From contig JBHHYR010000001.1 of NCBI GenBank assembly GCA_046757585.1, positions 3,354-67,353 on the forward strand: 64,000 bases of DNA, written 5' to 3'. Below, in pieces: positions 16,676 through 48,274 of this stretch. The notes under the pieces were generated by a model. It did not search any database. It had not been told where the DNA came from and saw only the letters and a program-made list of their open reading frames with translations. The stretch's first letter is position 1; each line of letters begins with the position of its first letter. Both the position numbers and the translations under genes were made by a program. This DNA comes from Candidatus Binatia bacterium. GTDB lineage: Bacteria > Desulfobacterota > Binatia > HRBIN30.

Positions 16676-16687
16676 GCGCTACACAAC

Positions 16688-19493: not shown

Positions 19494-19499
19494 TGCACC

Positions 19500-25643: not shown

Positions 25644-25662
25644 ACACCACGACTGGCACCAA

Positions 25663-28715: not shown

Positions 28716-28899
28716 ACCATCGCTTCCTAGATCGATCCGCTTCCGGTCGTCAACCCGACTCTCCCACGCCACCGGCCAACGCGCAGCGGCATCGGTGCCG
28801 CCCAGAACTGAGGAGGAAAAGCTGTGATTATCAAGTGAGCCGCACCGGCAAGCATCCCGTCTCTGGCCGCGGACGACATTGCCAGTGCGAAACGTCCTT

Positions 28900-30021
28900 T
28901 TACCTCGCGGCTCTGTGAGGTATCGGTCGGGGGCTGGTCTGTGGTCGCTGCCGCTGCATGACCGGCCGGCTTTGCCGGGCCACCCACGGGCTGTATCCCT
29001 TGAAGCGCCTCGGAGCGTAGAGCCACACGCGCCTGCACAGGCCGCGCCAGGCCGCACGGCGCAACGGCGACCGCCACAAGCCTTGCCAAGCCGCCCACCA
29101 GAGCTTCGTCGGTGCATACCAGCACACCTTGAGCCAGAACAACCCGAGCACCTGCGAGAACGCTGGCTCTGGATAGCAGCGCGCAATCTGGTTGGCAGCA
29201 CGCAGCTGGAGCAGCCACGCTCTGGCCCAATCGAGATACGCGCGACCCGGCGTGAAGCCCATCTTCTGCATGCGGCGCAGGAGGTAATGCCGTTGGAGGT
29301 CGCTGGCGGTAAACCGGATGCCGAGGCCGGTCAGCTGTGCGGCAAAAATAGTGAGGCGCCGCTCTGCTATCTGCGTTCCCCTACGCTGGGTCGTGCGGCC
29401 TCCGTGCATCCTCCGCCGCACCAGAACTTCCGGCAGAGTTGCAAGCTTGTGGTCCGCTACGATGCGGACCCACAGGTCGAAATCCGAGCCCAGGTCGTAC
29501 TCCTCATGATGGCCGTACTGCCGTATGACGGCCGTGCGAGCCATACTCGCGGAATTCTCCAAACAGGAGCGGAAGAGCCGTTCGGCTGCAATGTCATCCG
29601 CCGCGATGGGCTTGCGCTTGACCCGTCTCAGCGAGCGGCCCTGCTCATCCATGCGCCTGATCCAGGCACCCACTGCGGCGTACTCGCGGTGGCGGTCCAG
29701 GAAAGCCACCTGCTTGGCAAGCCGCTCCGGATAGGCGCAGTCATCGCTATCCAGAAACGCCAGGTATTCGCCACGTGCGAGTTCAATACCTGCATTGCGC
29801 GTTCTGGGGATGCCGAGGTTGGCCGTGTTACAGACCAGGCGAATACGCCGGTCGCGGTACGAGCGCACAATCTCCCGCGTTGCGTCAGTCGAGCCGTCAT
29901 CGATCACGAGCAGCTCAAAATCCGTGAAGGTCTGGACCAGGATACTGTCGATCGCGTCGGCGACGTAGCGTTCCCGATTGTATACAGGGATCAGCACCGT
30001 GACCTTTGGTGATCTATTCAT
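28900..30021 (-). CDS. glycosyltransferase family 2
   Basis: VTVLIPVYNRERYVADAIDSILVQTFTDFELLVIDDGSTD and LDSDD (DxD) are the GT2 (GT-A) signatures. Confidence 0.85.
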   Translation of the reverse strand: MNRSPKVTVLIPVYNRERYVADAIDSILVQTFTDFELLVIDDGSTDATREIVRSYRDRRIRLVCNTANLGIPRTRNAGIELARGEYLAFLDSDDCAYPERLAKQVAFLDRHREYAAVGAWIRRMDEQGRSLRRVKRKPIAADDIAAERLFRSCLENSASMARTAVIRQYGHHEEYDLGSDFDLWVRIVADHKLATLPEVLVRRRMHGGRTTQRRGTQIAERRLTIFAAQLTGLGIRFTASDLQRHYLLRRMQKMGFTPGRAYLDWARAWLLQLRAANQIARCYPEPAFSQVLGLFWLKVCWYAPTKLWWAAWQGLWRSPLRRAAWRGLCRRVWLYAPRRFKGYSPWVARQSRPVMQRQRPQTSPRPIPHRAAR

Positions 30022-30532
30022 GGTGGTGAGCAGCACGCTGTGAAAATCCGGCCGGTCGAGATCTCTGCCTGAGTCGGAGGAAGGACCGGAAAATCTTCTT
30101 TGCTGCCGGATTCGCGGAGTTGGGAAGCAGGTATCTCATGTCCCGACGAGCAGGTCGCGCATGCGATTGGCACTTTCCTCAACCAAGCTCAGCGAGCGTC
30201 TCGTTCGCGCCAATCCACGTTTCAGCGTCCTGCTCGGCGGTGAAATAGCCCCGCGTGCCCACCCGCCTTTTCGCGCCGCATATTGAAGTGGTCGGGCGGT
30301 CTGGAACCTGTAACACTGATTGTTCTCCAACGCGTACTCCCCTGTCCGTGGCTGTGCTGGTAGCACGGAACTGCGAGCGACAGCAACCCGCCGAGGTACC
30401 CTGACCGCCGGGAAGAACGGGTTGCCCATGTGAGGCGGGACTTTCATACCCCACCGGGCGCGGCGCTGGATGGAGCCCGCGCGCTACACCATGGCGCGCA
30501 CGAACGATACTCTCTTGCGGCGAGGTGGCGAG

Positions 30533-31534
30533 TCACGCCCGGCGCAGCTTGCGCCAGAGCGCCGGCACGAGCTGCAACGGACCCAAGGGATTGCGCTGGG
30601 CGCGCCGCAGCTCGGCTTCCACCTGGTCGATGTGCCGCAGCACCGGCGCCATCGCGGCGACCCCGTGCTCGATACGTTGCCAGTCTTCCCACAGCTCGGC
30701 CGCGTGCGGACCAACTTCGTCAGTCGCGAGGCGCCGCAGCCATCGGTACGCGTCGCGGGTCAAGACATTGACGCGGCCGTCGCACCCCAGATCATCATCG
30801 CTGAACTGGCTGTGTCGCATGCTGCGGCGCAAAAACTCCGCTGCGTACGTTTGGATCGCGTTCTTCGTGCCGGCAGTCACAGGAATGTCCAGCGCCCCGG
30901 CCACCCGTTCCATCTGAGCCACGGGATTCGCCATGAGGAGGTCGTAGTCGACCACGACGAAGGGCCGCTCCTGGATCCGCCGGAAATAGGGCACGACATT
31001 CACCAGCCACTCGAGATCACTGTGCTCTTGCCTACCGCGGCGTGGGTCGAGCTTCGCCCGAGACCGGGCAACGCTCAACGGATTGCGCACGGCCACGACG
31101 TAACGCACATCCAAATCCAGAGATCGATAGACGTCTTCCCAGAACGGCAGCAGGCGCAGCGTGCGCCCGTACTTGTAGCCCCACAGCGGGTAGCGGCCGA
31201 AGCGGCGTCGGATGGTTTCCACAGCTTCCTGGTGCAACGCCTGCACCGGTGGCGCACGCCACTGGTCCGGCTCGATCAGGGCGACGCTGTCGGCTCTGAG
31301 GACCAGAATCCTGCGTAGGCGTTTGTTGATGGCAAGCAAGCTTTGGTCTTCAAAGAAACCGGTTGGGTTTTTCCCGCCGGCCGGCTTGAGGTGATCACCG
31401 AGTTCTATCCCGAGCGCCTGCAGGCCGCGTGTAATGGCACTGGTGCCGCTGCGGCCGGCGCCGACGACGACCATAGCGCGCGCTTCCGACAGCGTGCGGG
31501 CTTCCGTCGCGACCCGGCTGGCTGCTGCAGGCAT
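30533..31534 (-). CDS. sulfotransferase family protein
   Basis: P-loop-like PAPS 5-phosphosulfate-binding motif VVGAGRSGTS and a downstream RNPLSVARS block. The start abuts the upstream sulfotransferase stop. Confidence 0.65.
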   Translation of the reverse strand: MPAAASRVATEARTLSEARAMVVVGAGRSGTSAITRGLQALGIELGDHLKPAGGKNPTGFFEDQSLLAINKRLRRILVLRADSVALIEPDQWRAPPVQALHQEAVETIRRRFGRYPLWGYKYGRTLRLLPFWEDVYRSLDLDVRYVVAVRNPLSVARSRAKLDPRRGRQEHSDLEWLVNVVPYFRRIQERPFVVVDYDLLMANPVAQMERVAGALDIPVTAGTKNAIQTYAAEFLRRSMRHSQFSDDDLGCDGRVNVLTRDAYRWLRRLATDEVGPHAAELWEDWQRIEHGVAAMAPVLRHIDQVEAELRRAQRNPLGPLQLVPALWRKLRRA

Positions 31535-31536
31535 GG

Positions 31537-32457
31537 TCAGTACCCGAAAGTGGAAGAAAGCCGGCTGCGGACGAGCGCGTCCATTTCGGCAGTTTGCTCA
31601 GGGGTAAAGTAATCGCGGTAGCCACCCACTTTGCCACGCCGCACCTTGAAGGAATCCGGATCATTCGGGTTGTGAAGTCTCAACCCCCAGTTCGAGAAAT
31701 AGTGCGTTCGTTCCAACTGCTTCAAGTTGTCGAAGGCGGCAAACGCGACCGCGTCTTCGATCGCCTCGTCCCCGAACGACTCGCCCATGAAAGAAGTCAA
31801 CCGTCTCATGGTGTCCGCCGGACGAGCGCGCAAATCTTCGTAGCGGAGCAGGAACCGCGGCGCGATCTGGGAAAGATTTCGCTCCCAGCGGTTCAAGTAC
31901 GCCACGAGGGCGGGCAGGCCGAGCTCGGGATGCATGACGAACTCCCACATCGGAATGGCTGCCGGGTCGACCGGCTGGCGCAGGGTGTGCGCGATCAGTT
32001 CGCGCTTGTAGGCGCTGATCCGTTTCGTGAATTGCAGGTACCACGACACCGCGACGTCGCAAGGGTGACGGGCCAGGAACACAACCTTCTTGCGATCCCA
32101 CCCCGACTGTACCGCGAGGGACGCAAAGGATCTCTCGAGCACGCCTTCGTACGTATAGTGGCCATTGGTGATCAGGAATCTCGGCAGCGCTGGGTTGCGG
32201 TTGTAAAGCTCATCGGTCTTCACGATCCGCCGTGACGGTAGGCCGTATTTCACCTGGTACAGCCGAGAAACCATGACCCGCAGCCAGGTACCGCCGCTCT
32301 TCGGATGCACGACGATGACAATGTCCGCTCGGGCGGCCTTGGCAAGCTGAAAACGGGACAGCAGCCGAAACCGAGCAGGGAGTCGAAGTGGTTTCGGGAG
32401 TCCGGCGGTCGAAGCCAGAATGGCGGCATGCTTCAGCACGTCAGGGACTTGAGTCAT
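31537..32457 (-). CDS. sulfotransferase (Sulfotransfer_1-like)
   Basis: 5-PSB motif HPKSGGTWL and 3-PB motif FLARHPCDVAVSWY. Confidence 0.8.
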   Translation of the reverse strand: MTQVPDVLKHAAILASTAGLPKPLRLPARFRLLSRFQLAKAARADIVIVVHPKSGGTWLRVMVSRLYQVKYGLPSRRIVKTDELYNRNPALPRFLITNGHYTYEGVLERSFASLAVQSGWDRKKVVFLARHPCDVAVSWYLQFTKRISAYKRELIAHTLRQPVDPAAIPMWEFVMHPELGLPALVAYLNRWERNLSQIAPRFLLRYEDLRARPADTMRRLTSFMGESFGDEAIEDAVAFAAFDNLKQLERTHYFSNWGLRLHNPNDPDSFKVRRGKVGGYRDYFTPEQTAEMDALVRSRLSSTFGY

Positions 32458-32511
32458 GGTGTCGCCAGATGCACGCGCATGCGAGCCTGCTTGTCCGCAC
32501 GGATCTGAACG

Positions 32512-33288
32512 CTAGTACCGCTGGTGCTGCAGGCCGACCGCGCGGAGCAGGCGGTCGATCGGCCTGAACCGGTTGATCACGACAATGAACACCTTACGCA
32601 GGCGATCCTGCGGGCAATGGATTTCGCGCACGCCATGCCACGATTGCTGCGTACGCGCGAACAGTACACTGCGGTTGCCCAGCGCCTGCGTGGAAATCAC
32701 CTGCTGAAAGTCGTCGAACTCGGGGGCTGACGCACGCTTGAAACGTCCCCCATCGTCGAGCACCAATGTCTCTCCTCCCCAAGCGGGGTCCCAGTCCTCG
32801 GTGGTGTTGAAGTAGAAGATGTGCGAGCCGAGCTTGCGTTTGGCATCGCAGTGGGGCGAAACGGAACACCCGTTCGGCGTGTAGTGCCAATGAAACCCCA
32901 CATCGAGGGAGTCGACACGGAGCATCCGGCGTAAGAAGCCTTGGTATTTCTTGCCCCGCAACTCCGCGATGAATTCCTTCCAGGGGGACGCAACATCAAG
33001 ATCATCGCTGTAATCGAGGTAGTAGCGATCGTGGCTTTTCTGGCCGTGAGAACGTTTCTTGCCGAAGAATGGCTTGAAACGGGAGACATCGGGGAGTGTT
33101 TCGAGCAAGCGCCGGTACCCTATCGTCGTCAGAAGCCCCTCGGGGTTGATCCAAGGATAGGGCTTCTGCGACCGGAAAGCATCGGCGCTAATCGCTGCCA
33201 GACGGTCGAAATCCAAGTATGTCATGGCATCCCTGTTGCGCTGAAACGCTCTTTCATGAACCAGATCGACCCCAAGTATAGAAGACAT
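32512..33288 (-). CDS. 2OG-Fe(II) oxygenase-like protein
   Basis: Candidate facial triad: H-x-D (SPHCDAK) and a distal His (QSWHGV), in a beta-rich context. Start at ATG 33288, because the upstream part of the six-frame ORF runs into the repeat element. Confidence 0.55.
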   Translation of the reverse strand: MSSILGVDLVHERAFQRNRDAMTYLDFDRLAAISADAFRSQKPYPWINPEGLLTTIGYRRLLETLPDVSRFKPFFGKKRSHGQKSHDRYYLDYSDDLDVASPWKEFIAELRGKKYQGFLRRMLRVDSLDVGFHWHYTPNGCSVSPHCDAKRKLGSHIFYFNTTEDWDPAWGGETLVLDDGGRFKRASAPEFDDFQQVISTQALGNRSVLFARTQQSWHGVREIHCPQDRLRKVFIVVINRFRPIDRLLRAVGLQHQRY

Positions 33289-33299
33289 GGCGGGCAAGT

Positions 33300-33468
33300 C
33301 TAGCAGTCCGTCGAAAAACAGGCGCCGTAGCGAGGGCGAGCGATTTTCCGTCAGATCAAGGCGCCGAACCGGAGGCAAATCCGATGATTTTGTTGAGGAT
33401 TCGGCAACGCAGAGCTGGCGGAAAATAGCCGCCCGCAGTAGGGGCCCTGTTTTTCAACGGGCTGCTGG
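33300..33468 (+). mobile_element. MITE-like 169-bp element, copy 2
   Basis: Near-identical to 12452-12620, in the same orientation. It fills the gap between the ELM1-family gene stop (33484) and the oxygenase start (33288). Confidence 0.75.
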
Positions 33469-33483
33469 CCCGTGGTGGACGCG

Positions 33484-34638
33484 CTAATCAGCCAGCAGGG
33501 CACGAACGCGGGCGACCGCGCGCGCCATGTCGTCCAGAGGCTGCCGCCGCACGGTGTCTGCGCTCTCGCCCAGCCGTGTCACCAAGCCGCGTACCTTGAG
33601 CGCCCGGTGGTACGCGTCAAAGTCACGTCGCGGCTTGATCAGCCCCAGATCTACCCGTCGATCATACCGGCCGGCCGGCCCGTCCGCGGGCGCGGCCGCG
33701 CCAGCCGCGTCGCTACGGTCCACCTGCAGCTGGCCGCCAGGGCGCAGAAAGGTGCGCACCGCGAATCGCCAGCCGGCCCGTCGCGGCCATTCGAACAACG
33801 CCACTGGCTTGGCAGTCGCGCACGCTTCCACGAGCATCGACGCGCTGTCCGCGGTGACAATGAAGCGATCCGCTAGCGCGAGAAACGCTAGATAGGGATT
33901 CTCTGGGTCATGCGGGTGCCAGCGGTGGCAGTACGCGGGACATGTGACGGCGGCCAACAGCGCGTCGGCGGCGGCCACCGGCGTGCGCGGGCTGGTGCTG
34001 AGCAGGAGCGATCCACCGCTGGCGCGCACCTGGGCGCTGGCCTCGCGAGCGAGACGTGCCGCGGTGACCGGATCGAGCACGTACGAGGAGCTGTTTCCAC
34101 CTACGAAGAGAGCCGTGTACGGCCGCACGAACCCCTCGAGCCGTGATGCCCAGCGAGACGCGGCCTCGGCCAGCCGCTCAGGGGCAAGGCGATTCAACGG
34201 TGCCGTCAGATGCAACACGTTCGGACGCTGCGGCAAACAATACTGGGGCAGCGTGATGACGAGATCGAATAGGGCCAGCGGCGCCTGGGTATGCAGGAGA
34301 TGCACGAGCCGGGTGTGGCCCGCCGACTGCTTCTTGATCCATCGCGCTACCGGTACGCTGCGCCGCGAGGCGGCGATCACCAGGTCCGGCCAGGGCGGCC
34401 TCAGCGGACTCGATCTACGGTGGTTCAGGCTCAGCAGCGAAGCGCCAAGCAACAAGTTGGGGCAACGGTTCAATGGGTTGTGCACCAGCTGTTTGGTCTC
34501 GTAGGGCCATCCCAGGGCGGCTGCCAGGCTCAACATCTGTCCGTTTCCGCCGGTTCCCTTGCCCAAGAGAACCCACACCGTCGGTGGGGATGCCCGGCAT
34601 GCGGTCTCCGTTAGCGGAGCACCTTCTTCAGAATCCAT
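33484..34638 (-). CDS. ELM1 (mitochondrial-fission ELM1 / DUF1022) family protein, GT-B-like
   Basis: VWVLLGKGTGGNGQMLSLAAALGWPYETK...PWPDLVIAASRRSVPVARWIKKQS is the family N-terminal pattern. An alternative GTG start at 34578 would remove the 28-nt overlap with gpmA. Confidence 0.72.
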   Translation of the reverse strand: MDSEEGAPLTETACRASPPTVWVLLGKGTGGNGQMLSLAAALGWPYETKQLVHNPLNRCPNLLLGASLLSLNHRRSSPLRPPWPDLVIAASRRSVPVARWIKKQSAGHTRLVHLLHTQAPLALFDLVITLPQYCLPQRPNVLHLTAPLNRLAPERLAEAASRWASRLEGFVRPYTALFVGGNSSSYVLDPVTAARLAREASAQVRASGGSLLLSTSPRTPVAAADALLAAVTCPAYCHRWHPHDPENPYLAFLALADRFIVTADSASMLVEACATAKPVALFEWPRRAGWRFAVRTFLRPGGQLQVDRSDAAGAAAPADGPAGRYDRRVDLGLIKPRRDFDAYHRALKVRGLVTRLGESADTVRRQPLDDMARAVARVRALLAD

Positions 34639-35345
34639 TCGAGAAGTTCGGGACGGCGTCGGAGATAATAGTGCCGCAGCGGCCGCACGTCGCGGTTCAG
34701 TTCGTACACCAGGGGCTCGCCGGTTGGAACATGGATGGCGGGCACCTCCGCGTCGGGGATATCGTCGAGATACTTGATGAGTCCCCGCAGAGTGTTGCCG
34801 TGTGCGACGACGAGGATCTGTTTGCCGCGTCGGAGCTCCGGCACGATGGTATCATGCCAATAGGGGAGGAGGCGCGTCACAGTGTCTTTCAGGCTTTCGG
34901 TGTGCGGGAGTGCAGCCGTGCCGAGCGCGGCATAGCGTGGGTCAAACCCCGGGTAGCGGGCGTCGCCCCTGTCGAGTGGGGGGGGCGGCACGGCGAAGTG
35001 CCGTTGCCAGACGAGCACCTGTCTAGCACCGTACTTCCGCACGGCCTCCCACCGGCTCAACCCCTGCAACGCTCCGTAATGCCGTTCGTTCAGACACCAG
35101 CTCTGCTGGACGGGGACGCACGCGAAATTCATGGTTTCAAGCACGATCCGCAGTGTTTCGGTCGCGCGTTTCAGACAGGAAGTGAAGCACAGATCAAACG
35201 CAAATCCCTTCGCTCTCAACAGACGTCCCGCCCGCTTCGCCTGCGCCACGCCACGCCTGCTCAGAGCGACATCGGTCCAGCCGGTGAACCGTCTCTCGCG
35301 GTTCCAAACGCTTTCGCCGTGGCGCAGGAGTGTGAGCTTGACCAT
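34611..35345 (-). CDS. gpmA: 2,3-bisphosphoglycerate-dependent phosphoglycerate mutase
   Basis: LLRHGESVWNRERRFTGWTDVALS (catalytic His motif) and VVAHGNTLRGLIKYLD..IPTGEPLVYEL. Confidence 0.9.
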   Translation of the reverse strand: MVKLTLLRHGESVWNRERRFTGWTDVALSRRGVAQAKRAGRLLRAKGFAFDLCFTSCLKRATETLRIVLETMNFACVPVQQSWCLNERHYGALQGLSRWEAVRKYGARQVLVWQRHFAVPPPPLDRGDARYPGFDPRYAALGTAALPHTESLKDTVTRLLPYWHDTIVPELRRGKQILVVAHGNTLRGLIKYLDDIPDAEVPAIHVPTGEPLVYELNRDVRPLRHYYLRRRPELLEWILKKVLR

Positions 35346-35369
35346 CGTCGTTCATCGGCTCCTCGACGA

Positions 35370-37907
35370 TCAGAGCGTCGCGCTGCAGCGGTCTCCCGGC
35401 ACAGCCTCGTGGCCCTCGTCCGGTACGCGACTGGGATCGGTGATGCCCAACAGCGCCCGCACCTTGGCGGCTACTGCATCGACTTCCCGCAGTGCGGGGC
35501 GTGGCCCCGTCTGCAGCGGTTCGCCGAAAAAGCGAGCGATGCCACGTTCGACCATGCGGTGGTGCAGCGCGTTGAGATCCCGCGGGGGCCGCACGAGGCC
35601 GTGTGCGATGAACCACGCACACAGGTATTCTAAGCCCTGTTGCGGCCGTACCGTCCCACGCCGGTTCAGTGGGCGCGCCGTGGCACGCGCGACCACCCAC
35701 TCTCTGAGCCGCAGCCACGGCCCCAGGAGCTGCTCCGGCAGCGGGTAAATGTACATCGGTTTGCCGGTGGCGGCTGCCTCGGCGAGCATCGACTCGCTGT
35801 CTCCAGTCACAACCAGCACATCGGCCAAGGCCAAGTACCCCAGGTAGGGGTTCGCTCGGCGTCCCGGCTGCCACTGATGCACGGACGCGGAGCCGCCAAG
35901 TCCCGCCTTGAGGGCCTCCGTAGCCTCCGCCCCCGTGCGGCGGCTGGTCACAGCGAACACGGACCCGCCCGCGGCTTGGGCGACGGCACGCACTTCCTCG
36001 GCCATGCGCCGCGCGGTCTTCCGATCCAGCCGGTGCCGCAGCGAAGTCCCTCCCACCACGAGCACGATCCGCGGGCGCGGGCGGTTGTCCAGCAGATTGG
36101 GCCAGCGGGCGGCCGCCTTCGCAAGCCGCGCCGGCGTGACGGGGTTGAGCGGCACAACGGTTTCAATGCGCCGCGGATGGCGCGGAAAACGGAAGTGCCC
36201 GCAGGTGATCACCACGTCGAACCGCCCGACGACATCACCACCCTTACGCCCCAGCTGCACCAACCGGGTTCCGCCTTGACTCTGCTTGCCGATCCAGCGT
36301 GCCACCGGTGCGGTCCGCCGGCCGGTCGCGATCACCACGTCGGGCCACGGCGGGGCGAGCCCCGCCGACCGCCGTCTATCGAGCGAGATTCGCTTCGCCC
36401 CGAGCAGGCCGTTGCTCAGGAGGTTGAGCGCGTTGAACCGTAACGCCTTGGTCTCGTAAGGCCAACCGAGCGCCTGGGCGAGTCCGACGGATTGGATTGT
36501 GTGGCCCGGCTTGTGATCGGTAAGGACCCACACTCTTGGGGCGCTTCCCAGCCAGCAGCCCCCCGACCGCACCCGGGTTTCGCTGCGCCCCATTGCAGTC
36601 CGCCACGACGCGACGAGCCGCCAGTGCACGTGTGGGTGACGCGCAGCGGCCGCTTCGAACCGTGCGAACCACCACTCCGGCTCACGCGGTCGCCGGCGCG
36701 ATCGGGTTCCATCGTGCAGGATCCCTGCGCCCGCACCAGCGGACACGCTCGCGTACACGAAGCGGCCGGCGTACCGGAACAGCTCTTCAACAACCCAGGG
36801 AACGTCTTCGTCCGGCAACAGCTCCAGCCCGCCGGTACACGCGACGCCGTCGAACTGTTCCGTAGGTGGCGTCGCCATGGACGGCACGGCAGGATCGTAG
36901 CGTGTGACGATGTGTTCCCCGTCCGCAGCGAGGTCCATTTCGGCCACTCCCATCGCACCGTCGTCCCCGCTCCAGCGGTACTCCAAAATTGTGCGTGCGC
37001 CCGTCATAGTGATCAGCTCGCGGAGCCGCGCTTCCGGGGCAGCCGCAGCGGGTCGTACCGTTGCACGGGGGCCATCGCCACGGCCGCGCGCGGCGCGTAG
37101 CCGCGCCAGCAATGCCGTATACCCGGCGCTCGGACGGGCAGCCGTGAACACTTGGTACCCACTTGCGTCAGCCGCCCGTTCAAGATCGAACCAGACGTCA
37201 TCGATGGGGTTCGACTGGTAGACGAACCGGCGTGGAAATGGCCGCCATGGTTGTGTGTGCAGAACGGTGTAGTGCAACAATCTCGACCGCCCCCGCACAT
37301 ACTCCCGGTCACGCGCGTTCCACTCGGGAGCCAGGGCACCGTGCAACCCCGGCACTGCAAGTGCCTTGGCCAGCAGGGAATTTTTTCGGCCACGCTGCGC
37401 GGCGTCAAGGGTCCAGATCTCCGCCATCCGTGCACAGTCGATCAACATGACCGAGGAGTCCTTCGCGTCGATAGCAAGGAAACCATGGCCACCCATGTCG
37501 GTGTCGAACAGCTCTGCGGGATCGCGCAGGTAGACTTGATCCACGTCGTTGTATATCGCCCGCCCGCTGCGGCCGGCAAAGTGCGGAATGGCGAAGCGGT
37601 AGTTCGTGAAGCCTGTGAGCCACAGGTGCCGGCGCCAGCCGAAACCTGCCAGTTCCTTCATGAGATAGATCTCATACACCCGCGACGGATCCCGCACCTG
37701 TTCGATGGACCAGATGAACACCCGCTCAGCGCGCCAATGGGCCGGCTCAGTGCCCAGGAAGATGCGTACCGGTGGCTTCGAACAGGGGGGGACGCCGCTG
37801 CGCACGTCGAGCACGACTCGCTCGGGCTGCATCCGCACGGCGGCGCGGCCATTGTCTGCCCGGGACCAGAACCGCGCGGCCACGCGCGCCGCTGTCGCAA
37901 GGGTCAT
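35370..37907 (-). CDS. multidomain GT8-like glycosyltransferase / methyltransferase-like middle region / ELM1-family fusion protein
   Basis: N-terminus: NYRFAIPHF..AIYNDVDQVY (GT8 DxD). Middle: FDGVACTGGLELLPDEDVPWVVEELFRYAGRFVYASV, which resembles a methyltransferase C-terminal region. C-terminus: VWVLTDHKPGHTIQSVGLAQALGWPYETK...PWPDVVIATGRRTAPVARWIGKQS, paralogous to 33484-34638. Confidence 0.7.
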   Translation of the reverse strand: MTLATAARVAARFWSRADNGRAAVRMQPERVVLDVRSGVPPCSKPPVRIFLGTEPAHWRAERVFIWSIEQVRDPSRVYEIYLMKELAGFGWRRHLWLTGFTNYRFAIPHFAGRSGRAIYNDVDQVYLRDPAELFDTDMGGHGFLAIDAKDSSVMLIDCARMAEIWTLDAAQRGRKNSLLAKALAVPGLHGALAPEWNARDREYVRGRSRLLHYTVLHTQPWRPFPRRFVYQSNPIDDVWFDLERAADASGYQVFTAARPSAGYTALLARLRAARGRGDGPRATVRPAAAAPEARLRELITMTGARTILEYRWSGDDGAMGVAEMDLAADGEHIVTRYDPAVPSMATPPTEQFDGVACTGGLELLPDEDVPWVVEELFRYAGRFVYASVSAGAGAGILHDGTRSRRRPREPEWWFARFEAAAARHPHVHWRLVASWRTAMGRSETRVRSGGCWLGSAPRVWVLTDHKPGHTIQSVGLAQALGWPYETKALRFNALNLLSNGLLGAKRISLDRRRSAGLAPPWPDVVIATGRRTAPVARWIGKQSQGGTRLVQLGRKGGDVVGRFDVVITCGHFRFPRHPRRIETVVPLNPVTPARLAKAAARWPNLLDNRPRPRIVLVVGGTSLRHRLDRKTARRMAEEVRAVAQAAGGSVFAVTSRRTGAEATEALKAGLGGSASVHQWQPGRRANPYLGYLALADVLVVTGDSESMLAEAAATGKPMYIYPLPEQLLGPWLRLREWVVARATARPLNRRGTVRPQQGLEYLCAWFIAHGLVRPPRDLNALHHRMVERGIARFFGEPLQTGPRPALREVDAVAAKVRALLGITDPSRVPDEGHEAVPGDRCSATL

Positions 37908-38162
37908 AACCGCTTCCGTCTACCGGCGGTGATCAGTTGACACGAACGCCCGCCCTGCCATCCACCTGAGATGCCTGGTTAGCAGGAAGCGGTGCAAGAA
38001 ACCATCCGCGGGCGGCGTTCGGTGCCAGCGAGGGCGGCCGGAACGCAGTGCCCGGGAGTACGGTGCGCCCCGGGCACTGGGGTCGCCGCCTCCCTGCGCT
38101 CTCCGACGCAGCGAACTCTCACTTCGCCTTGGCGGACACCCGATTGTATGCGAAAGGGAGCC

Positions 38163-39419
38163 ATGCCGATGAGCGGGGACCGAAAGCACGTGACCGTGTT
38201 CATCCATGGCCTGACGGCTGGGGGGGCGCAGCGCCGCACCCTTGCTCTGACCCGCGCCTTTGCCGCGCGTGGCCACCACGTGGATCTGGTCGTGGTGCAC
38301 GCGGCCGGGCCGCTACGGAATCAACTCTCCCATCTGGTACACCTTGTCGAGCTCGATCCCTGGACAACCCATCTTCCTGTGCTGAGACAGTCGAGGCGGG
38401 GCCAAGTGTTTGCGAGCATTCCGGCGCTGGCACGCTATCTCCGAGCGCAGCACCCCGACGTCATGCTGTCAGCAGCGAGCCACGTCAATCTGGGAGCACT
38501 CTGGGCTCGGCGGCTGGCGCGGGTTGGCACGCCCCTGGTCTTGCGAGTCAGCAATCATCTTTCGCGCGCGGCGTTCAACACAAGACGGGCGCCGCGCCTG
38601 CTTGCGCCGTTGCTGGCTCGGCACTGTTATCCCTGGGCGGATGCGATCATTGCGGTCTCGAACAGCGTGGCAGACGATCTGGCGAAGGTGACGCGAGCGC
38701 CGCGCGAACGGATCGTGACGATCTACAGCCCGGTTCTCACGGTAGAGCTGCAACGACAAATGGCCGCCCCGTTCGAGCACGCGTGGTTTGCACCCGGCGC
38801 TCCTCCCGTGGTGCTTGGCGCCGGTCGTTTCGTCGCGCAAAAGGATTTCCCCACCCTGCTCAAGGCCTTTGCACGGGTGCGCGCGGAACGTCCGGCACGA
38901 CTGATGATTCTGGGTGGAGCCAAGACTCCCAGGCGGCGGAGACGGCTGCTGGCACTGGCGCAGCGACTGCGGATGGCTGACGATGTAGCCCTGCCCGGCT
39001 TCATCCCGAATCCATTGCCCTACATGGCGCGCGCCGCAGTCTTCGTTCTGTCCTCGGCATGGGAAGGACTCCCCGCGGTGTTGATCGAGGCAATGGCGTG
39101 TGGCTGCCCAGTGGTGAGCACCGATTGTCCGGGCGGGTCCGCCGAAATATTGGAACGGGGCCGCTACGGACCGCTGGTTCCGGTCGGCGACGCTCCCGCG
39201 CTGGCGCATGCCATTTTGTCGCAGCTCGACGCGACACCAGACCGCGAGCGCCTGCGAGCGCGAGCCGCAATGTTCTCCGCCCCTGCCGCTGCGGATCGCT
39301 ACCTGGAGGTCCTGCTCGGCGTATGTCGCGGTGGCCCGCCGCGCATTGACTCACAACCCCTTCACCCACTTGCGAGGGGCAGCACCGCGCGCGGCGCCAG
39401 CCCTCAGCTCCGGGCCTGA
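38163..39419 (+). CDS. glycosyltransferase family 4 (GT-B)
   Basis: VTVFIHGLTAGGAQR at the N-terminus and the C-terminal E-x7-E region (SSAWEGLPAVLIEAMACGCPVVSTD). ATG at 38163 behind an AGGGAG RBS. Confidence 0.85.
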   Translation: MPMSGDRKHVTVFIHGLTAGGAQRRTLALTRAFAARGHHVDLVVVHAAGPLRNQLSHLVHLVELDPWTTHLPVLRQSRRGQVFASIPALARYLRAQHPDVMLSAASHVNLGALWARRLARVGTPLVLRVSNHLSRAAFNTRRAPRLLAPLLARHCYPWADAIIAVSNSVADDLAKVTRAPRERIVTIYSPVLTVELQRQMAAPFEHAWFAPGAPPVVLGAGRFVAQKDFPTLLKAFARVRAERPARLMILGGAKTPRRRRRLLALAQRLRMADDVALPGFIPNPLPYMARAAVFVLSSAWEGLPAVLIEAMACGCPVVSTDCPGGSAEILERGRYGPLVPVGDAPALAHAILSQLDATPDRERLRARAAMFSAPAAADRYLEVLLGVCRGGPPRIDSQPLHPLARGSTARGASPQLRA

Positions 39420-41201
39420 CGTACCCGCCGCCGCGGGCTGCATCCCACCGGCTGCCTGGCTCGTGGCGCCCTTTTCGTCTAATGGAGCAAGCGGGGTGAT
39501 CCGGCCATCTCCGACGTGATAGACATGGTCGGCAATGTCGATCAGCCGCCCCTGGTGGCAAATCGCCAGGATCGTCATCGTGCCCCGGAGTTCCAGCAAG
39601 GTCGCGCAAATTCCTTCCTCAGTCGCCGGGTCTAGGCCGGTCGTCGCTTCGTCCAAGATCAGTAGCCGCGGCCGGCGTGCCAACGCACGGGCCAAGGCGA
39701 TTCGCTGCCGCTGACCGCCGGAGATCCGTAGGCCTCGTTCGCCGACCATGGTGTCCGGTCCCTCCGGCAGTGCGGTCACGAATTCCCACGCGCCCGCCGC
39801 CCGCAATGCGGCTTCGACATCCGCTGCCGTCAGATCCGGGTCACCGAGCGTAACGTTGAGGCGGACGCTGTCGTGCAAGAGGAACGTCTCCTGCGGCACG
39901 TAGCCAATCATGGCACGCCAGAGGCGTGCGTCCAAAATGCGGAGCGAGACATCATCGATGAACACGTCTCCTGCTTGCGGTTCGATCAGACCGATGAGCA
40001 GGTCGGCAACGGTTGTCTTCCCGGCACCGGAGGGGCCGACAAGCACGGTCAGCCGGCCGGCAGGGACCCTGAGGCACGCGTCGCGTAGTACCCACCGTTG
40101 CTCGTACGCAAAGCTCGCATGCTGTAGCACCACCTCGCGCTGGAGCACGGGCGGTGTCCTCCCAGGTTTCACCTCATGTGCCGCTTCGGCCTGCTCGATC
40201 ATCGCGTTCAACGACCAGAACGCGCTCTCGCAAGCACCCATGCGCTGCACTTCCTTTTGAACCTTGCCTAGGCCGGCAACGATCTGCGCACACAGCAGCG
40301 CGAGCATGATCACGGTTGCCAGCGGCAACGTCGAGCGGGTCAATGCAACGTACAGGCCAGCCGCCAGGAACGCCACGATCAAGGGCTCCTGCAGTGCTCG
40401 CAGCGCTTCCTTGCTCAACACCTCGCGCTGCAGTGCGCGGTTCAGACGCCGGGTCTCACTTTCCAGCAGGGGCCCGATCAAGGTTTCGCGCGCCATCGCC
40501 TTGAGGGGCTTGACGCCCTGCAGCGTATCGGTAAGCCGCCCGAGCAGGGACTTCGTCAGCCGCGTTTGCCGTGTGCCTGCCCGGCGCGTCACATGGACCA
40601 GCCGATTGAAGGCGTACACGATCACCGCACCTGCAACCAGCGCCACAAGCGTCGCCCGCCATGACACGAGGAACGCCACACAGGCGTACACCACCGCCTC
40701 GACCAACAGGGAGAGGATCATGGTCGCGTGCAGGTAGGCTTCCGAAGCGCGCCGGGCTTCGGACGCCACCGCGTTGGCGAAGGCACCGACCGGTTGGTGA
40801 ACGTAATACTCCCAGCGTGTGCGCAACAGCGCGCGGATGAGCGCAAGCCGCAGGTCCGTCGCGACCTGGGCCACCGTGTACCCCACCTGCTTGTTGGCCA
40901 GGAGCACGAGGCCCGCTTTCACGGTCATCCCCGTTACGATCACCGCGAGGAGCACACCCGTGGTGGGCTGCAGTCCCACCACCTGTAAGGCGCGGGTGAC
41001 CGCCTGTTCCAGGGCGTTCGGGCTGCCACCGCCGTGCGTGCCCCCACCGGTCCGTGCGCCGGAGCGATTTGCGGCCAGCCCGATCAAGGGTAGGAGACTC
41101 GAGAGGCCCACGCCGGCAGCAAGACCACCAAGCAGCAGACAGATCAGCATGACGGCGGTGTGCCACGGGTACCTCCGCGCGAAACGGATCAAGAGCTGCA
41201 T
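39351..41201 (-). CDS. ABC exporter, fused TMD-NBD (MsbA-like lipid/glycolipid flippase)
   Basis: Six-helix N-terminal domain, then Walker A GPSGAGKTT, signature ISGGQRQRIALARA and Walker B LILDEAT. The convergent 3-prime end overlaps the GT4 gene by 69 nt. Confidence 0.85.
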   Translation of the reverse strand: MQLLIRFARRYPWHTAVMLICLLLGGLAAGVGLSSLLPLIGLAANRSGARTGGGTHGGGSPNALEQAVTRALQVVGLQPTTGVLLAVIVTGMTVKAGLVLLANKQVGYTVAQVATDLRLALIRALLRTRWEYYVHQPVGAFANAVASEARRASEAYLHATMILSLLVEAVVYACVAFLVSWRATLVALVAGAVIVYAFNRLVHVTRRAGTRQTRLTKSLLGRLTDTLQGVKPLKAMARETLIGPLLESETRRLNRALQREVLSKEALRALQEPLIVAFLAAGLYVALTRSTLPLATVIMLALLCAQIVAGLGKVQKEVQRMGACESAFWSLNAMIEQAEAAHEVKPGRTPPVLQREVVLQHASFAYEQRWVLRDACLRVPAGRLTVLVGPSGAGKTTVADLLIGLIEPQAGDVFIDDVSLRILDARLWRAMIGYVPQETFLLHDSVRLNVTLGDPDLTAADVEAALRAAGAWEFVTALPEGPDTMVGERGLRISGGQRQRIALARALARRPRLLILDEATTGLDPATEEGICATLLELRGTMTILAICHQGRLIDIADHVYHVGDGRITPLAPLDEKGATSQAAGGMQPAAAGTSGPELRAGAARGAAPRKWVKGL

Positions 41202-41312
41202 AGCGCCACCCGTGTGGTCTTGTAGCAGGATGTGTGTGGAAGCGACACCTCCACGCGCCTTGACATTGTGGCCGCGCTGCGCGCATCTCTACCCTGGTCG
41301 ACCGCGAAGCCT

Positions 41313-42536
41313 ATGAGTCCGAATGTCGCCTCCGAGGCCCCGCCGGCCGCATCCCCACGGCAGGAGGGGGCGGCCCGCCGCGGTGGCGAGCCCGCGCGGG
41401 CAACGCCGCCCGTGTATGCGCTCCCGGTCCAACATCGTCGCGACCGGACCCGCTTCATCAAAGTACCGTGGTCGGTCTACGCGGACGATCCGGTCTGGGT
41501 ACCGCCCCTCGTGGTGGAACGCCGGCAGCATCTATCGCAGCGCAACCCGTTTTTCGCCCACGCGCGGGCGCAGTTCTGGGTTGCCTACCGGCAGGGCCGG
41601 CCGGTCGGCCGCATCAGCGCCCAGGTGGATGACCTGCACCTGGAGCGTTATCACGACGCGACGGGCTATTTCGGATTTCTGGAATGCATCGACGATGGCC
41701 CGACGTTTCACACCTTGTTCACGGCCGCGGAAGAATGGCTGCGCCAGCAAGGCATGCGGCGCGCGATCGGGCCGTTCAACTTCTCCATCAACGACGAGTG
41801 CGGCCTGTTGATCGACGGTTTCGATACCCCCCCCATGTTCCTGATGGGCCACGGTCGTCCTTACTATGATGAACGCGTCAAGCAGCAAGGCTACCGAAAG
41901 GCCAAGGACACCGTGGCATATCTCCTCGCCACGGCGCAGTCGCCCCCCGCGGTCATGCAGGCGACCGTCCGCCGTGCCGGCTCGGGGCGCATACAGGTTC
42001 GCCCGCTGCGCCTCGCACATTTGCGCGAGGACCTCGACATCTTGCGCGACATCTTCAACGATGCCTGGTCGGACAACTGGAACTACACCCCGTTCACAGC
42101 CGCGGAATTGGCGGGGCTTGGCCAGAGCTTGAAGCTGTTTGTCCCGCCCGAGTTCGTGCAGATCGCGGAAGTGGACGGCATCCCCGCAGCAATGATCGTC
42201 GTAGTACCGAACCTCAACGAAAGCATTCGCGACCTCGGAGGTCACTTACTCCCGTTTGGCTGGCTGCGGCTGCTGTGGCGCCTCAAATGGGCCGGGCCAC
42301 GGACAGGCCGTGTGCCCCTGATGGGCGTGCGGCACGCGTATCAGCGCAGCTCGCTGGGCATGGCGTTGGTCTTCCTCCTGGTCGAGGCGGTGCGTGGCCC
42401 GGTGGCGCAACGCGGCATCGAACAGATGGAGCTCTCCTGGACGCTCGAAGACAACCGGGCGATGCGTCACATCAAGGAACGCCTCGGCGCTCGTTTGTAC
42501 AAGACCTACCGCATCTACGAAAAGACCTTGGTCTAA
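41313..42536 (+). CDS. GNAT-fold-like acyltransferase family protein (uncharacterised)
   Basis: Conserved N-terminal pattern FIKVPWSVYADDPVWVPPL....RNPFF.HA....WVAYR.GRPVGRISAQ.D plus GPFNFSINDECGLLIDGF. I recognise this as a family usually annotated as N-acetyltransferase. Recalled from memory, not searched. Confidence 0.5.
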   Translation: MSPNVASEAPPAASPRQEGAARRGGEPARATPPVYALPVQHRRDRTRFIKVPWSVYADDPVWVPPLVVERRQHLSQRNPFFAHARAQFWVAYRQGRPVGRISAQVDDLHLERYHDATGYFGFLECIDDGPTFHTLFTAAEEWLRQQGMRRAIGPFNFSINDECGLLIDGFDTPPMFLMGHGRPYYDERVKQQGYRKAKDTVAYLLATAQSPPAVMQATVRRAGSGRIQVRPLRLAHLREDLDILRDIFNDAWSDNWNYTPFTAAELAGLGQSLKLFVPPEFVQIAEVDGIPAAMIVVVPNLNESIRDLGGHLLPFGWLRLLWRLKWAGPRTGRVPLMGVRHAYQRSSLGMALVFLLVEAVRGPVAQRGIEQMELSWTLEDNRAMRHIKERLGARLYKTYRIYEKTLV

Positions 42537-42577
42537 AGACACGGGCCGTCCATCTTCAGGCGTCAGAGGCAGGCACG

Positions 42578-43420
42578 TTGCACGAATCGGAACCGGGAGA
42601 GGACGGCGTCTCAGGCAACCATTTTACCGCTCTGGTCCTGGCGGGGCGCCGTCCTAGTGGCGATGCGTTTGGCCGGATCACCGGCGTGTCTGATAAAGTA
42701 CTGATTCCTGTCGCCGGTGTGGCAATGTTGGTGCGGGTCGTTCGGACGCTGCGCGCCGCGCAATACGTGAACCGGGTCGTCGTTTGTGGAGTCGACGCGG
42801 CGATGCTTGCGGACCAGATGGAGCTCCGCGCATTCATGGACGCCGGAGAGGTGGCACTCCTGGACAGCCGGGCAACGCCCAGCGCCAGCGTGTTGCACGC
42901 TCTGGACCGGCTGCCGCAGTGTGTGCCGCTGTTGGTCACAACCGCGGATCATCCCTTACTGACCGCGGAAATGGTCGACTACTTTTGCAAGGCGGCGTTG
43001 CAGACTGGAGGCGACGTCGCCGTGGGACTGGTGGGTGCAGACGTGGTGCGCGCCGCGTTCCCGGAGTCCAAACGCACGTATCTGAGGTTTCGCGCCCAGG
43101 CCTACTGTGGGAGCAATCTTTTCGCGCTGCTGAGTCCCGCGGCGCGGCGTGCGCCCGCTGCGTGGATGCAGGTTGAGCAATACCGGAAACGACCTTGGAA
43201 GATGGTGCGCGCCTTGGGAGGCGTCGTGCTGCTCCGCTTTCTGCTGGGACGCCTGACGCTCGACGCCGTCGTCCGCTTGGCGTCCCGCAGGATCGGTATC
43301 CGGGCAGCTCCGGTCATACTCCCCTATCCCGACGCTGCTATCGACGTCGACACGCCGAAGGATTTGGCGCTGGCCGAGGCTATCCTGCGCCAGCGCGGGG
43401 AAACCGGACAGCGGCTCTGA
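42578..43420 (+). CDS. MobA-like NTP-transferase-domain protein
   Basis: ALVLAGRRPSGD...KVLIPVAGVAML...LLVTTADHPLL resembles NTP_transf_3 proteins. Start uncertain (TTG 42578 proposed). Confidence 0.5.
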   Translation: MHESEPGEDGVSGNHFTALVLAGRRPSGDAFGRITGVSDKVLIPVAGVAMLVRVVRTLRAAQYVNRVVVCGVDAAMLADQMELRAFMDAGEVALLDSRATPSASVLHALDRLPQCVPLLVTTADHPLLTAEMVDYFCKAALQTGGDVAVGLVGADVVRAAFPESKRTYLRFRAQAYCGSNLFALLSPAARRAPAAWMQVEQYRKRPWKMVRALGGVVLLRFLLGRLTLDAVVRLASRRIGIRAAPVILPYPDAAIDVDTPKDLALAEAILRQRGETGQRL

Positions 43421-43467
43421 GACGAGCGCAGGCGGTGCGACCTCGCTTCATCAGGCAGCGCGGGCTG

Positions 43468-44211
43468 CTACTGCCGCTCCATGATCTGCCACCTGGCAAC
43501 GAACTCGTGCGCTTTCCTGAGATCCTGCGGAAAATCGATCTCCATCCACTGCTGCGCATCGACGGATACAGCTTGCACGTGGCCGCGTTGCGCCAAATCG
43601 TTGATGACCGACAGGTACCAGAGGCGTCGCGCGCCCGGCTCCATCACGGCTGCTTCCAGTGCCTCACGGAATAACCCGGGCCCGGCACCCCGAAATATCA
43701 GCATCCCGATCGATTCGCCGTGGGTTTCCTGTGGAGGTAGGTCCTTTCCGATGCCGAGCAACGTGCGGCCATCGCAGCGCACTTTCATGTCGTCCGCGTC
43801 GTACGCGCCTTTGCGGCCGATCGCGACGGTGATGGGGGCGGGCTCGCTGGCAAGGAGCTGGCGCAGCACCGCAGCCTCGAACAGCGTGTCCCCATTGAGG
43901 AGAATGAAATCATCGTGCATGGCTTGGCGGGCCACCCAGCAACTCACCAAATTGTCCGCCACGTGGAAGAAGGGATTGTGCACCGTGTCGATCTGCGACG
44001 GCCGTGCACACGCCTGCGCGAGGGCTTCCTGGACCTTGCTGGCCGCAAACCCGACGACGACGGTGACCTTGCGGACGCCGCACGCCGCAAGCTCCTGCAA
44101 TTGCCAGTCGATGATTCGTTGACCCGCAACCGGCAACAGACACTTGGGCTGGCTGGCCGTCAGAGGAAGCAGGCGCTTACCTTGCCCAGCATTCAACATG
44201 AGCGCGTTCAC
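43468..44211 (-). CDS. sugar-/alcohol-phosphate nucleotidyltransferase (LicC/GlmU-N-like)
   Basis: MLNAGQGKRLLPLTASQPKCLLPVAG is the G-x-G-x-R-L nucleotide-binding signature. At 247 aa it is a single-domain protein. Confidence 0.78.
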   Translation of the reverse strand: MNALMLNAGQGKRLLPLTASQPKCLLPVAGQRIIDWQLQELAACGVRKVTVVVGFAASKVQEALAQACARPSQIDTVHNPFFHVADNLVSCWVARQAMHDDFILLNGDTLFEAAVLRQLLASEPAPITVAIGRKGAYDADDMKVRCDGRTLLGIGKDLPPQETHGESIGMLIFRGAGPGLFREALEAAVMEPGARRLWYLSVINDLAQRGHVQAVSVDAQQWMEIDFPQDLRKAHEFVARWQIMERQ

Positions 44212-44785: not shown

Positions 44786-44984
44786 GGCACCCTTCTGTGA
44801 GTCAGATGCTGGGCACGCGGGAACGTTGCAGTGGGTACCGTCAATCTCTCGACTCGACATCTTTCCGGAGGCCGTACCGCTGGCCGCGCTGCCGCCAGGG
44901 TGTCCGCCGGGCGTGCAACGCCGGACACACCCGCCGCATCTGACTAGGTTGAGAATGCCTGGCAGAAGAGGGGGGTGCGCGCGC

Positions 44985-47079: not shown

Positions 47080-47087
47080 CGGGCAGC

Positions 47088-48257: not shown

Positions 48258-48274
48258 CTGCCGGAGGTGGGTGC

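Follow-up and report, generated by a model that had tools for sequence, protein, structure and literature searches.

Gene content of the locus

The 64,000-nucleotide stretch analysed here (the window; G+C about 65%) belongs to a Candidatus Binatia bacterium whose draft genome comprises 4.4 Mb in 460 contigs. At 28900-44211 it carries a mostly minus-strand island encoding glycosyltransferases (GT), two sulfotransferases, a 2-oxoglutarate (2OG)-Fe(II) oxygenase, two ELM1 domains (one of them part of a fusion protein), a phosphoglycerate mutase, an ABC exporter, a GNAT-type protein and two nucleotidyltransferases (Table 1). An initial annotation had listed these genes from the sequence; every one of them is present, and each is backed by a profile or fold result. 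Together with the genes that precede it, the island probably belongs to a sphingolipid supercluster of about 30 kb (window positions of about 14.7-44.2 kb), of which it would form the distal, head-group-decorating and export half.

Table 1. Features of the locus, with window coordinates and proposed Caulobacter counterparts (CC_1154, PMC11324152; CC_1155/1156, bioRxiv 10.64898/2026.04.12.717747).
Feature	Position	Strand	Evidence	Caulobacter counterpart
Spt (serine palmitoyltransferase), acyl carrier protein (ACP), fatty-acyl-AMP ligase (FAAL)	14740-18517	+		
CpgC-like (Tam41-like), CpgB-like lipid kinase, CpgA-like CDP-alcohol transferase	18540-21835	-	DAGK_cat, CDP-OH_P_transf	CC_1159-1161 (CpgA, CpgB, CpgC), head-group steps
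LptG2/LptF2 permeases	22175-24438	-	PF03739, 208 and 221 bits	CC_1155/1156 (LptF2/LptG2), sphingolipid transport, bind LptB
HupE_UreJ_2 + DUF3604 pair	24435-29201	-	Pfam matches	
GT2 glycosyltransferase	28900-30036	-	PF00535, 125 bits	
ST_A, Sulfotransfer_3-type sulfotransferase	30533-31534	-	PF13469, 28 bits (cut-off 27)	
ST_B, cytosolic-type 3'-phosphoadenosine 5'-phosphosulfate (PAPS) sulfotransferase	31537-32457	-	Sulfotransfer_1 PF00685, 86 bits	
2OG-Fe(II) oxygenase, prolyl 4-hydroxylase (P4H)-like	32512-33225	-	PF13640	
Miniature inverted-repeat transposable element (MITE) copy, 167 bp, between ELM1 and 2OG genes	33300-33466			
Stand-alone ELM1/KdoT-family GT-B transferase	33484-34638	-	PF06258, 218 bits	
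gpmA2, dPGM phosphoglycerate mutase	34611-35345	-	NCBIfam PRK14115 equivalog, 334 bits (cut-off 305)	
Fusion, 845 aa: GT8-fold GT-A + linker + ELM1/KdoT-family GT-B	35370-37907	-	PF06258, 221 bits, aa 467-740	
GT4 glycosyltransferase	37992-39419	+	PF13692, 111 bits; PF00534, 102 bits	
ABC exporter, half transporter (transmembrane + nucleotide-binding domain, TMD-NBD)	39351-41201	-	ABC_membrane + ABC_tran	
GNAT acyltransferase, like bacterial ceramide synthase (bCerS)	41232-42536 (source gene model from 41313)	+	PF00583; 407-aa model	CC_1154, ceramide synthase
CC_1153-like MobA/CofC-type nucleotidyltransferase	42275-43420	+	PF12804, 55 bits	CC_1153, CofC-like nucleotidyltransferase
CpgD-like (IMPCT/LicC-type) cytidylyltransferase	43468-44211	-	PF12804, PF00483	CC_1152 (CpgD), CTP:phosphoglycerate cytidylyltransferase

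Proposed counterparts of the Caulobacter ceramide pathway

The Spt candidate has serine palmitoyltransferases as its top PDB matches (302 bits), ahead of KBL/BioF, and the serine palmitoyltransferase model as its top NCBIfam match, below the cut-off of that model. Synthesis of capnine or sulfonolipids was considered and rejected, the cysteate acyltransferase match reaching 192 bits against 302 for serine palmitoyltransferase. Beside Spt, a gene with a PP-binding domain (16142-16675) encodes the ACP and a gene with an AMP-binding domain the FAAL. A gene for an MlaC-family lipid-binding protein (12707-13384, minus strand) lies just upstream of these three. The CpgB-like kinase and the CpgA-like transferase pass their Pfam profiles, and the CpgA-, CpgB- and CpgC-like genes are adjacent, co-conserved and, in many loci, co-located with the fusion gene.

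The GNAT, MobA-like and LicC-like genes had initially been regarded as decoration genes. They are present, but look like counterparts of the Caulobacter core pathway (bCerS, CC_1153 and CpgD). The GNAT protein belongs to a family of at least 7948 members, whose database names are only "N-acetyltransferase" or "hypothetical". Its gene stands beside the CC_1153-like and CpgD-like genes, which is the position of cerS in Caulobacter (PMC11324152), and from domain and position we infer that it is the bCerS counterpart. The MobA-like protein gives a weak match to the F420 enzyme CofC, and its conservation begins at residue 118 (about position 42626). For the CpgD-like protein, the best matches were IMP cytidylyltransferase in NCBIfam (71 bits) and LicC in the PDB (1jyk), the same two that are the best named relatives of Caulobacter CpgD, and its motif GQGkRL...PK...NGDT (signature GxGxRL...PK...NGD) is kept in 41 orthologues. 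CpgD forms CDP-glycerate, with D-2-phosphoglycerate as the preferred substrate (PMC12275187), and the CpgD-like enzyme is predicted to make the same product.

Both gpmA and the lptFG pair of the window are second copies: a gpmA paralogue of 45% identity lies on contig C40, and another adjacent lptF/lptG pair, 22-24% identical, on contig C81. In Caulobacter, LptF2G2 is required for sphingolipid transport (bioRxiv 10.64898/2026.04.12.717747). We infer that the three island genes (GNAT, MobA-like and LicC-like), together with gpmA and lptFG, belong to the known phosphosphingolipid pathway. The phospho-alcohol decoration proposed in the initial annotation would then most likely be phosphoglycerate, given the resemblance of the LicC-like gene to CpgD and the gpmA copy of the cluster.

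ELM1 domains and the fusion protein

Exactly two proteins of the host genome match PF06258 (cut-off 27 bits), and both are encoded in the window. The AlphaFold (AF2) model of the stand-alone ELM1 protein has a GT-B fold (predicted local distance difference test, pLDDT, 87), and its Foldseek matches are all GT-B enzymes (E about 5e-6). Each of the 26 ELM1 domains aligned, whether stand-alone or fused, has the motif TS[PR]RT, with invariant R and T; 5 of the 26 have SRRT and nearly all others SPRT. Among 14 named control genomes, PF06258 was found in one, that of Caulobacter.

The view that bacterial ELM1 proteins are functionally uncharacterised, taken in the initial annotation, is outdated. 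The "ELM1-like" A1S_2903 (KdoT) of A. baumannii is an inverting GT-B transferase that uses the CMP-activated form of the acidic sugar 3-deoxy-D-manno-oct-2-ulosonic acid (Kdo) to add KdoIII to Kdo2-lipid IVA, just before the GT4 enzyme GnaT acts; its C-terminal SRRT is conserved, and R180 is required and was modelled at the donor carboxylate (PMC10936431, PMC12856342). Judged by its motif and its place in the domain, the invariant arginine of the ELM1 domains appears to correspond to this essential R180. A gene for a KdsB-type CMP-sugar synthetase is present in the host genome. Most economically, the ELM1 domains would attach an acidic, cytidine-activated sugar to an acceptor carried on a lipid.

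The initial annotation had described the larger protein as a GT8-ELM1 fusion. The ELM1 domain is clear from its profile score, but the N-terminus fails the Pfam GT8 profile (PF01501, 13.9 bits against a cut-off of 24.3; E 0.039) and is GT8-like by predicted fold. Its AF2 model, built on 26 sequences (pLDDT 82), found GlyE, 3tzt (GT8), LgtC, WbbM and glycogenin as the best Foldseek matches (E about 1e-8, TM-score about 0.5), and in the DxD motif NDVDQ the residues N101, D102, D104 and Q105 are invariant in the 26 sequences. This predicted fold makes it a GT8-like GT-A domain. A profile search of the fusion alignment against the PDB gave spurious ribosomal matches only. The linker (about residues 300-450) matches no Pfam family; a conserved stretch in it, DAVVCxGGLExLPDxD, would be compatible with a methyltransferase-like remnant.

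Sulfotransferases and the 2OG oxygenase

Both genes annotated as PAPS-type sulfotransferases passed the profile searches, ST_B clearly and ST_A only just. ST_B matches cytosolic SULTs in the PDB (E 4e-13) and has both the 5'-phosphosulfate-binding motif (5'-PSB, PKSGGTW) and the 3'-phosphate-binding motif (3'-PB, RRGKVGGY), and is by these features a clear cytosolic-type PAPS sulfotransferase. No sequence-level relative of ST_A was found in the PDB; its motifs GaGRSGTS and RnPLSVArSR are kept across 17 orthologues. The supply of PAPS, for which synthesis genes were to be sought elsewhere in the genome, is provided for by an APS (adenosine 5'-phosphosulfate) kinase and an ATP sulfurylase.

In the 2OG oxygenase, the pattern SPHCD...SWH...RK (HxD...H...RK) is invariant in 41 orthologues, and the PDB entry 9ei6 was matched with an E of 4e-9. 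Conservation among these orthologues begins at residue 52 of the listed open reading frame (ORF), the first 26 codons of which are MITE sequence; since the listed ORF begins inside the MITE, the true start should lie near 33225. The same N-terminal extension explains spurious matches of 26 amino acids in the search against the own genome. The MITE occupies part of the 258 bp that separate ELM1 from the 2OG gene and is 97.6% identical to the copy at 12452-12620; a further window copy lies at 63942-64000. The element is 167-169 bp long and occurs in the genome in 26 copies of 150 bp or more. A promoter-like site at the edge of the MITE (33302-33275, minus strand) is at chance level. The short contig C339 (about 1 kb) carries a partial second GT8-like domain (67% identical) beside a second 2OG gene (62%), which could be a paralogous locus or strain or bin contamination (CheckM-type contamination 6.3%).

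GT4, GT2 and the ABC exporter

The best matches of GT2 and GT4 are enzymes of exopolysaccharide (EPS) type, all below cut-off. GT4 has five paralogues elsewhere in the genome (contigs C71, C276, C398 and C219, with two in tandem on C219; 48-58% identity), and some Binatia loci (L102, L104) have three tandem GT4 copies near the fusion gene. In Caulobacter, the ceramide glycosyltransferases Sgt1 and Sgt2 are GT4 enzymes (PMC6445935).

The exporter had been called MsbA-like. It is not an MsbA orthologue (TIGR02203, 214 bits against 602) and shares only the ABC exporter architecture; its best NCBIfam match is a HepA-family model (270 against 725), with CydD and MsbA also below cut-off. The PAPS- and nucleotide-sugar-dependent steps are necessarily cytoplasmic, so the finished lipid needs to be flipped. 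The flippase of sphingolipid export in Caulobacter is still unidentified (PMC11087976, bioRxiv 10.64898/2026.04.12.717747), and the ABC exporter encoded beside the fusion is a candidate for this function.

Distribution and synteny in relatives

With the fusion serving as marker, 185,579 GTDB species genomes were scanned by pattern and tblastn, which led to 439 related loci. Window proteins were searched by tblastn on the 80 loci that were retrieved, of which 51 had full 10-kb flanks; counts out of 51 refer to these and to genes within 10 kb of the fusion. The loci belong to Binatia, Nitrospirales, Gamma- and Alphaproteobacteria, an Acidoferrum (Acidobacteriota) metagenome-assembled genome and Myxococcales. 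At least one CpgA-, CpgB-, CpgC-, bCerS-, CC_1153- or CpgD-like gene is found in 46/51 loci, the CC_1153-like gene in 39/51, and an Spt homologue lies at most 10 kb from the fusion in 34 of the 80. The 2OG gene is present in 31/51, mostly right after the fusion or gpmA, the ABC exporter in 24/51, mostly immediately upstream of the fusion, and gpmA follows the fusion in 21/51. Less frequent are GT2 (13/51), ST_A (10/51), stand-alone ELM1 (9/51), GT4 (7/51) and ST_B (2/51). In this synteny comparison, which the initial annotation had suggested, fusion, 2OG, ABC and gpmA genes are syntenic with cpg and bCerS genes across phyla.

For example, Nitrospira sp. DJ (L063, CP058931.1) has, in order, lptF, the CpgD-like and CC_1153-like genes, GNAT, a fatty-acid hydroxylase, FAAL (AasR), a CerR-like epimerase, Spt and the fusion, with AasR to fusion on the same strand. 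On the 3' side of the fusion, Nitrospirales loci (L063 12470-19356) have a conserved gene of 463 amino acids, a GFO/IDH/MocA oxidoreductase and a NeuB-cupin fusion, followed by a HAD phosphatase, a CTP_transf_3 CMP-sugar synthetase and a methyltransferase, which by their predicted products make up a nonulosonic/ulosonic acid pathway beside spt. Among the 40 genomes closest to the host, 10 have the CpgC-like gene, and 8 of these also carry the fusion or ELM1, which the remaining 30 all lack. This patchy spread over genera and phyla argues for a functional linkage of the fusion with the sphingolipid genes.

Within the 51 loci, stand-alone ELM1 and ST_A co-occur (8 with both, 1 with ELM1 alone, 2 with ST_A alone, 40 with neither; p=6e-7), and each is anti-correlated with the CpgD-like gene (for ELM1, p about 1e-4), while gpmA is associated with the CDP-alcohol transferase (p=3e-5). 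Three genomes (G016, G038 and G039; L014-L019, L029) keep the fusion, ELM1, 2OG, ST_A, the ABC exporter and GNAT, and no CpgD-like gene was detected in them genome-wide at E<=1e-30. These patterns suggest two alternative anionic extensions, a second phosphoglycerate (CpgA, CpgD, gpmA) or a sugar with sulfate (ELM1, ST_A). The host genome, like locus L030, has both modules.

Neighbouring genes

The island had been placed next to lptFG. An lptF/lptG pair does exist at 22175-24438, but the DUF3604/HupE pair lies in between. It consists of a HupE_UreJ_2 protein of 619 amino acids and a DUF3604 ORF of 888 amino acids with a PHP/CehA-like hint, and paralogues of the two (38% and 51% identity), likewise adjacent, are found on contig C186. 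Near the fusion in relatives, HupE and DUF3604 occur in 1/51 and 0/51 loci; the pair was therefore rejected as a pathway member and is probably an unrelated insert between lptF2 and GT2. A scan for promoters and terminators gave counts at chance level and so defines no operon boundaries. Directly downstream of the island, a gene for a tetratricopeptide repeat (TPR) protein (44367-45680) precedes a set of OEP/TolC-like, HlyD-like and MacB-type ATPase and permease genes (45694-50126), which is not kept beside the fusion elsewhere.

Proposed pathway and alternatives

Ceramide is the most likely anchor, because the island is contiguous with the Spt, ACP and FAAL genes and the CpgC-, CpgB- and CpgA-like genes, and the fusion is linked to sphingolipid genes across phyla. 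We regard as the likelier account that the product is a ceramide-phosphate- or phosphoglycerate-anchored, glycosylated and probably sulfated lipid, flipped by the ABC exporter and exported by LptF2G2. In this scheme, ceramide would be made and then phosphorylated by the CpgB-like kinase, and the CpgC-like enzyme would convert it to ceramide phosphoglycerate. A second phosphoglycerate would come from CDP-glycerate, the donor being made by the CpgD-like enzyme, from 2-phosphoglycerate supplied by the gpmA copy of the cluster, and added by the CpgA-like enzyme. The head group would be built up further at the cytoplasmic face. There, the donor of the ELM1 domains, as inverting GT-B enzymes of the KdoT family, would probably be an acidic compound activated with cytidine, for instance CMP-Kdo; hexoses would be attached by the GT8-fold domain, GT4 and GT2, some position would be hydroxylated by the 2OG oxygenase, and sulfate would be transferred from PAPS by ST_A and ST_B. 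The finished anionic glycosphingolipid would be flipped by the ABC exporter and extracted for the outer membrane by LptF2G2, probably with the housekeeping LptB. The initial annotation had foreseen the building and export of a sulfated glycolipid or lipopolysaccharide (LPS) core variant. The glycolipid locus, credible sulfotransferases and a phospho-acid decoration survive from it, but the anchor is likely ceramide.

Several points weigh against this account. It is a prediction from the genes, in which domains, motifs and gene order serve to equate the proteins with those of Caulobacter. The host genome encodes LpxC (contig C150), so that lipid A is made, and the sole characterised ELM1 member acts on LPS. 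The CpgC-like protein (317 amino acids) has Tam41_Mmp37 as its sole Pfam hint (E 0.11), the profile score of ST_A is borderline, and ST_A and ST_B are accessory, being present in 10 and 2 of the 51 full-flank loci. No epimerase-type gene that could encode the CerR reductase was found in the window, and in the 460-contig draft the best match to the Nitrospira CerR-like gene (25% identical, contig C2) is unconvincing. CerR is periplasmic in Caulobacter (PMC11087976), which is an awkward fit with complete assembly of the head group in the cytoplasm. Genome G037 has a split fusion and CpgC- and CpgD-like genes, but gave no GNAT match. Finally, the locus counts and p-values ignore shared ancestry and hence overstate the support.

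An island for decorating the LPS core or lipid A, in which the ELM1, GT8-like, GT4 and GT2 enzymes and the sulfotransferases would modify the inner or outer core, the ABC exporter would work in the manner of MsbA and lptFG would export the product, appears unlikely. GT8 enzymes are classic LPS outer-core transferases, and the genome has LpxC and a KdsB-type enzyme. KdoT, moreover, acts on Kdo2-lipid IVA with the GT4 enzyme GnaT (PMC12856342, PMC10936431). No lpx, waaA or heptosyltransferase gene was found, however, among the scanned window ORFs of at least 230 amino acids, LpxC being encoded on C150, and the lptFG pair of the window is not the only one, the other lying on C81. None of the 30 relatives without a CpgC-like gene has ELM1 or the fusion, whereas spt, bCerS-like or cpg-like genes neighbour the fusion in 46/51 loci and the Nitrospira fusion directly follows spt. 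A different role for the ELM1 domains, the TagF-like transfer of phosphoglycerate or glycerate from CDP-glycerate to give a poly-phosphoglycerate head group in place of a glycan, is in our judgement improbable, even if it would account for several observations. The donor of KdoT is cytidine-activated and has a carboxylate contacted by an essential arginine (PMC12856342), whose apparent counterpart is invariant here, and CDP-glycerate, too, is a cytidine-activated carboxylate, formed in the ceramide phosphoglycerate (CPG) pathway (PMC12275187). Such an activity would fill a gap in the Caulobacter pathway, which has no assigned enzyme for coupling glycerate to activated ceramide (PMC11324152); Caulobacter is also the one control genome of the 14 with an ELM1 gene, and gpmA follows the fusion in 21/51 loci. 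Against it speak the negative association of stand-alone ELM1 with a CpgD-like gene at a distance of up to 10 kb (p about 1e-4) and the genomes G016, G038 and G039, which have the fusion and no CpgD-like gene (E<=1e-30). In addition, the Foldseek matches of ELM1 are generic sugar-nucleotide GT-B enzymes, with no TagF-type enzyme among the 50 listed, and the pairing of the Nitrospira fusion with NeuB and a CMP-sugar synthetase points to ulosonic-acid donors.

It is also conceivable that the genes are unrelated neighbours, the glycosyltransferases, sulfotransferases and ABC exporter making a separate sulfated exopolysaccharide or glycoconjugate and gpmA being a housekeeping gene. The EPS-type best matches of GT2 and GT4, albeit below cut-off, would agree with this, as would the interruption of the array by the DUF3604/HupE insert and the MITE, the slightly lower G+C at 30-34 kb (0.62-0.63, against 0.66-0.70 in the flanks) and the MacAB/TolC-type efflux set that comes next (45.7-50.1 kb). 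We nevertheless hold it to be very improbable: the window yielded no Wzx/Wzy, Wza/Wzc or initiating phosphoglycosyltransferase, the genome has another gpmA besides this one, and across phyla the fusion, 2OG, ABC and gpmA genes keep their synteny with cpg and bCerS genes.

Beyond the ceramide-anchored glycolipid preferred here, a bolder proposal, which we put forward tentatively, is that Binatia, Nitrospirales and scattered Proteobacteria, Acidobacteriota and Myxococcota have a ceramide-anchored analogue of lipooligosaccharide. The ELM1 domain of KdoT type and the GT8-fold hexosyltransferase to which it is fused may furnish ceramide phosphate or phosphoglycerate with an inner core that is acidic and Kdo-like, phosphoglycerate (CpgA, CpgD, gpmA) and the sulfated sugar (ELM1 and ST_A) may be interchangeable modules for the negative charge, and the dedicated ABC flippase may be the missing inner-membrane step of bacterial sphingolipid export.

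Published accounts exist of the CPG-type locus, LptF2G2 and KdoT. In our literature search, no paper tied bacterial sphingolipids to ELM1/KdoT-type enzymes, GT8-like domains, 2OG oxygenases or sulfotransferases, and none dealt with sphingolipids of Binatia. The cluster predicts an undescribed sulfated, sugar-bearing bacterial sphingolipid. Bacterial sphingolipids able to replace LPS are a young field, in which only Caulobacter (CPG/CPG2, GSL-2) and the sphingomonads have head groups of known chemistry. The locus offers testable candidates in the conserved ABC exporter, the widespread GT8-fold/KdoT-type fusion, the 2OG oxygenase and the sulfotransferases, and gives the KdoT family, characterised only recently, another lipid context. 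Sulfate is suggested as a phosphorus-free means of charging the outer leaflet. Among the carriers are groups of environmental importance, Nitrospira nitrifiers and Binatia for example.

Comparison with known systems

The closest known system is the phosphosphingolipid locus CC_1152-CC_1168 of Caulobacter crescentus, which serves anionic outer-membrane lipids through synthesis of ceramide, CPG and CPG2 and transport by LptF2/G2/C2. Spt, ACP and the acyl-ACP synthetase/FAAL are common to both, as is a second LptF/LptG pair within the locus. By domains and gene order, the two also seem to agree in a GNAT-type ceramide synthase beside CofC-like and LicC/IMPCT-like nucleotidyltransferases and in a DAGK-type ceramide kinase with Tam41-like and CDP-alcohol transferase proteins. 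The uncultured Binatia-type host, unlike Caulobacter, has in addition the GT8-fold/ELM1 fusion, a second ELM1, GT4, GT2, the 2OG oxygenase and two sulfotransferases, as well as its own gpmA copy and a flippase candidate that is of ABC and not of Wzx type. No counterpart was found here of the CC_1158 phosphoesterase, the TagF-like CC_1167, LptC2 or a clear CerR.

With KdoT, the ELM1 domains share PF06258, the GT-B fold and apparently the C-terminal S-x-R-T with its essential arginine, and here too ELM1 is encoded beside a GT4 enzyme in a locus for an outer-leaflet glycolipid. The acceptor of KdoT is Kdo2-lipid IVA, whereas the gene context here is ceramide and not lipid A; one ELM1 copy is fused to a GT8-fold domain, and the motif is mostly SPRT and not SRRT.

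The Sgt1/Sgt2 and Sphingomonas-type systems similarly glycosylate bacterial ceramide to give an anionic outer-membrane glycolipid, and GT4 is found here too (PMC6445935). Sgt1 and Sgt2 differ in that their genes lie apart from the ceramide locus and are induced when cells are starved of phosphate (PMC6445935), and no ELM1, GT8-like, sulfotransferase or phosphoglycerate genes are involved in those systems. Finally, rhizobial Nod factors and LPS and mycobacterial sulfolipids are likewise cases of PAPS-dependent sulfation of envelope glycolipids in bacteria, built on other lipid anchors by unrelated clusters; in the Binatia locus, by contrast, the sulfotransferase genes are placed in a locus for sphingolipids, and their occurrence varies with that of an ELM1-type transferase.

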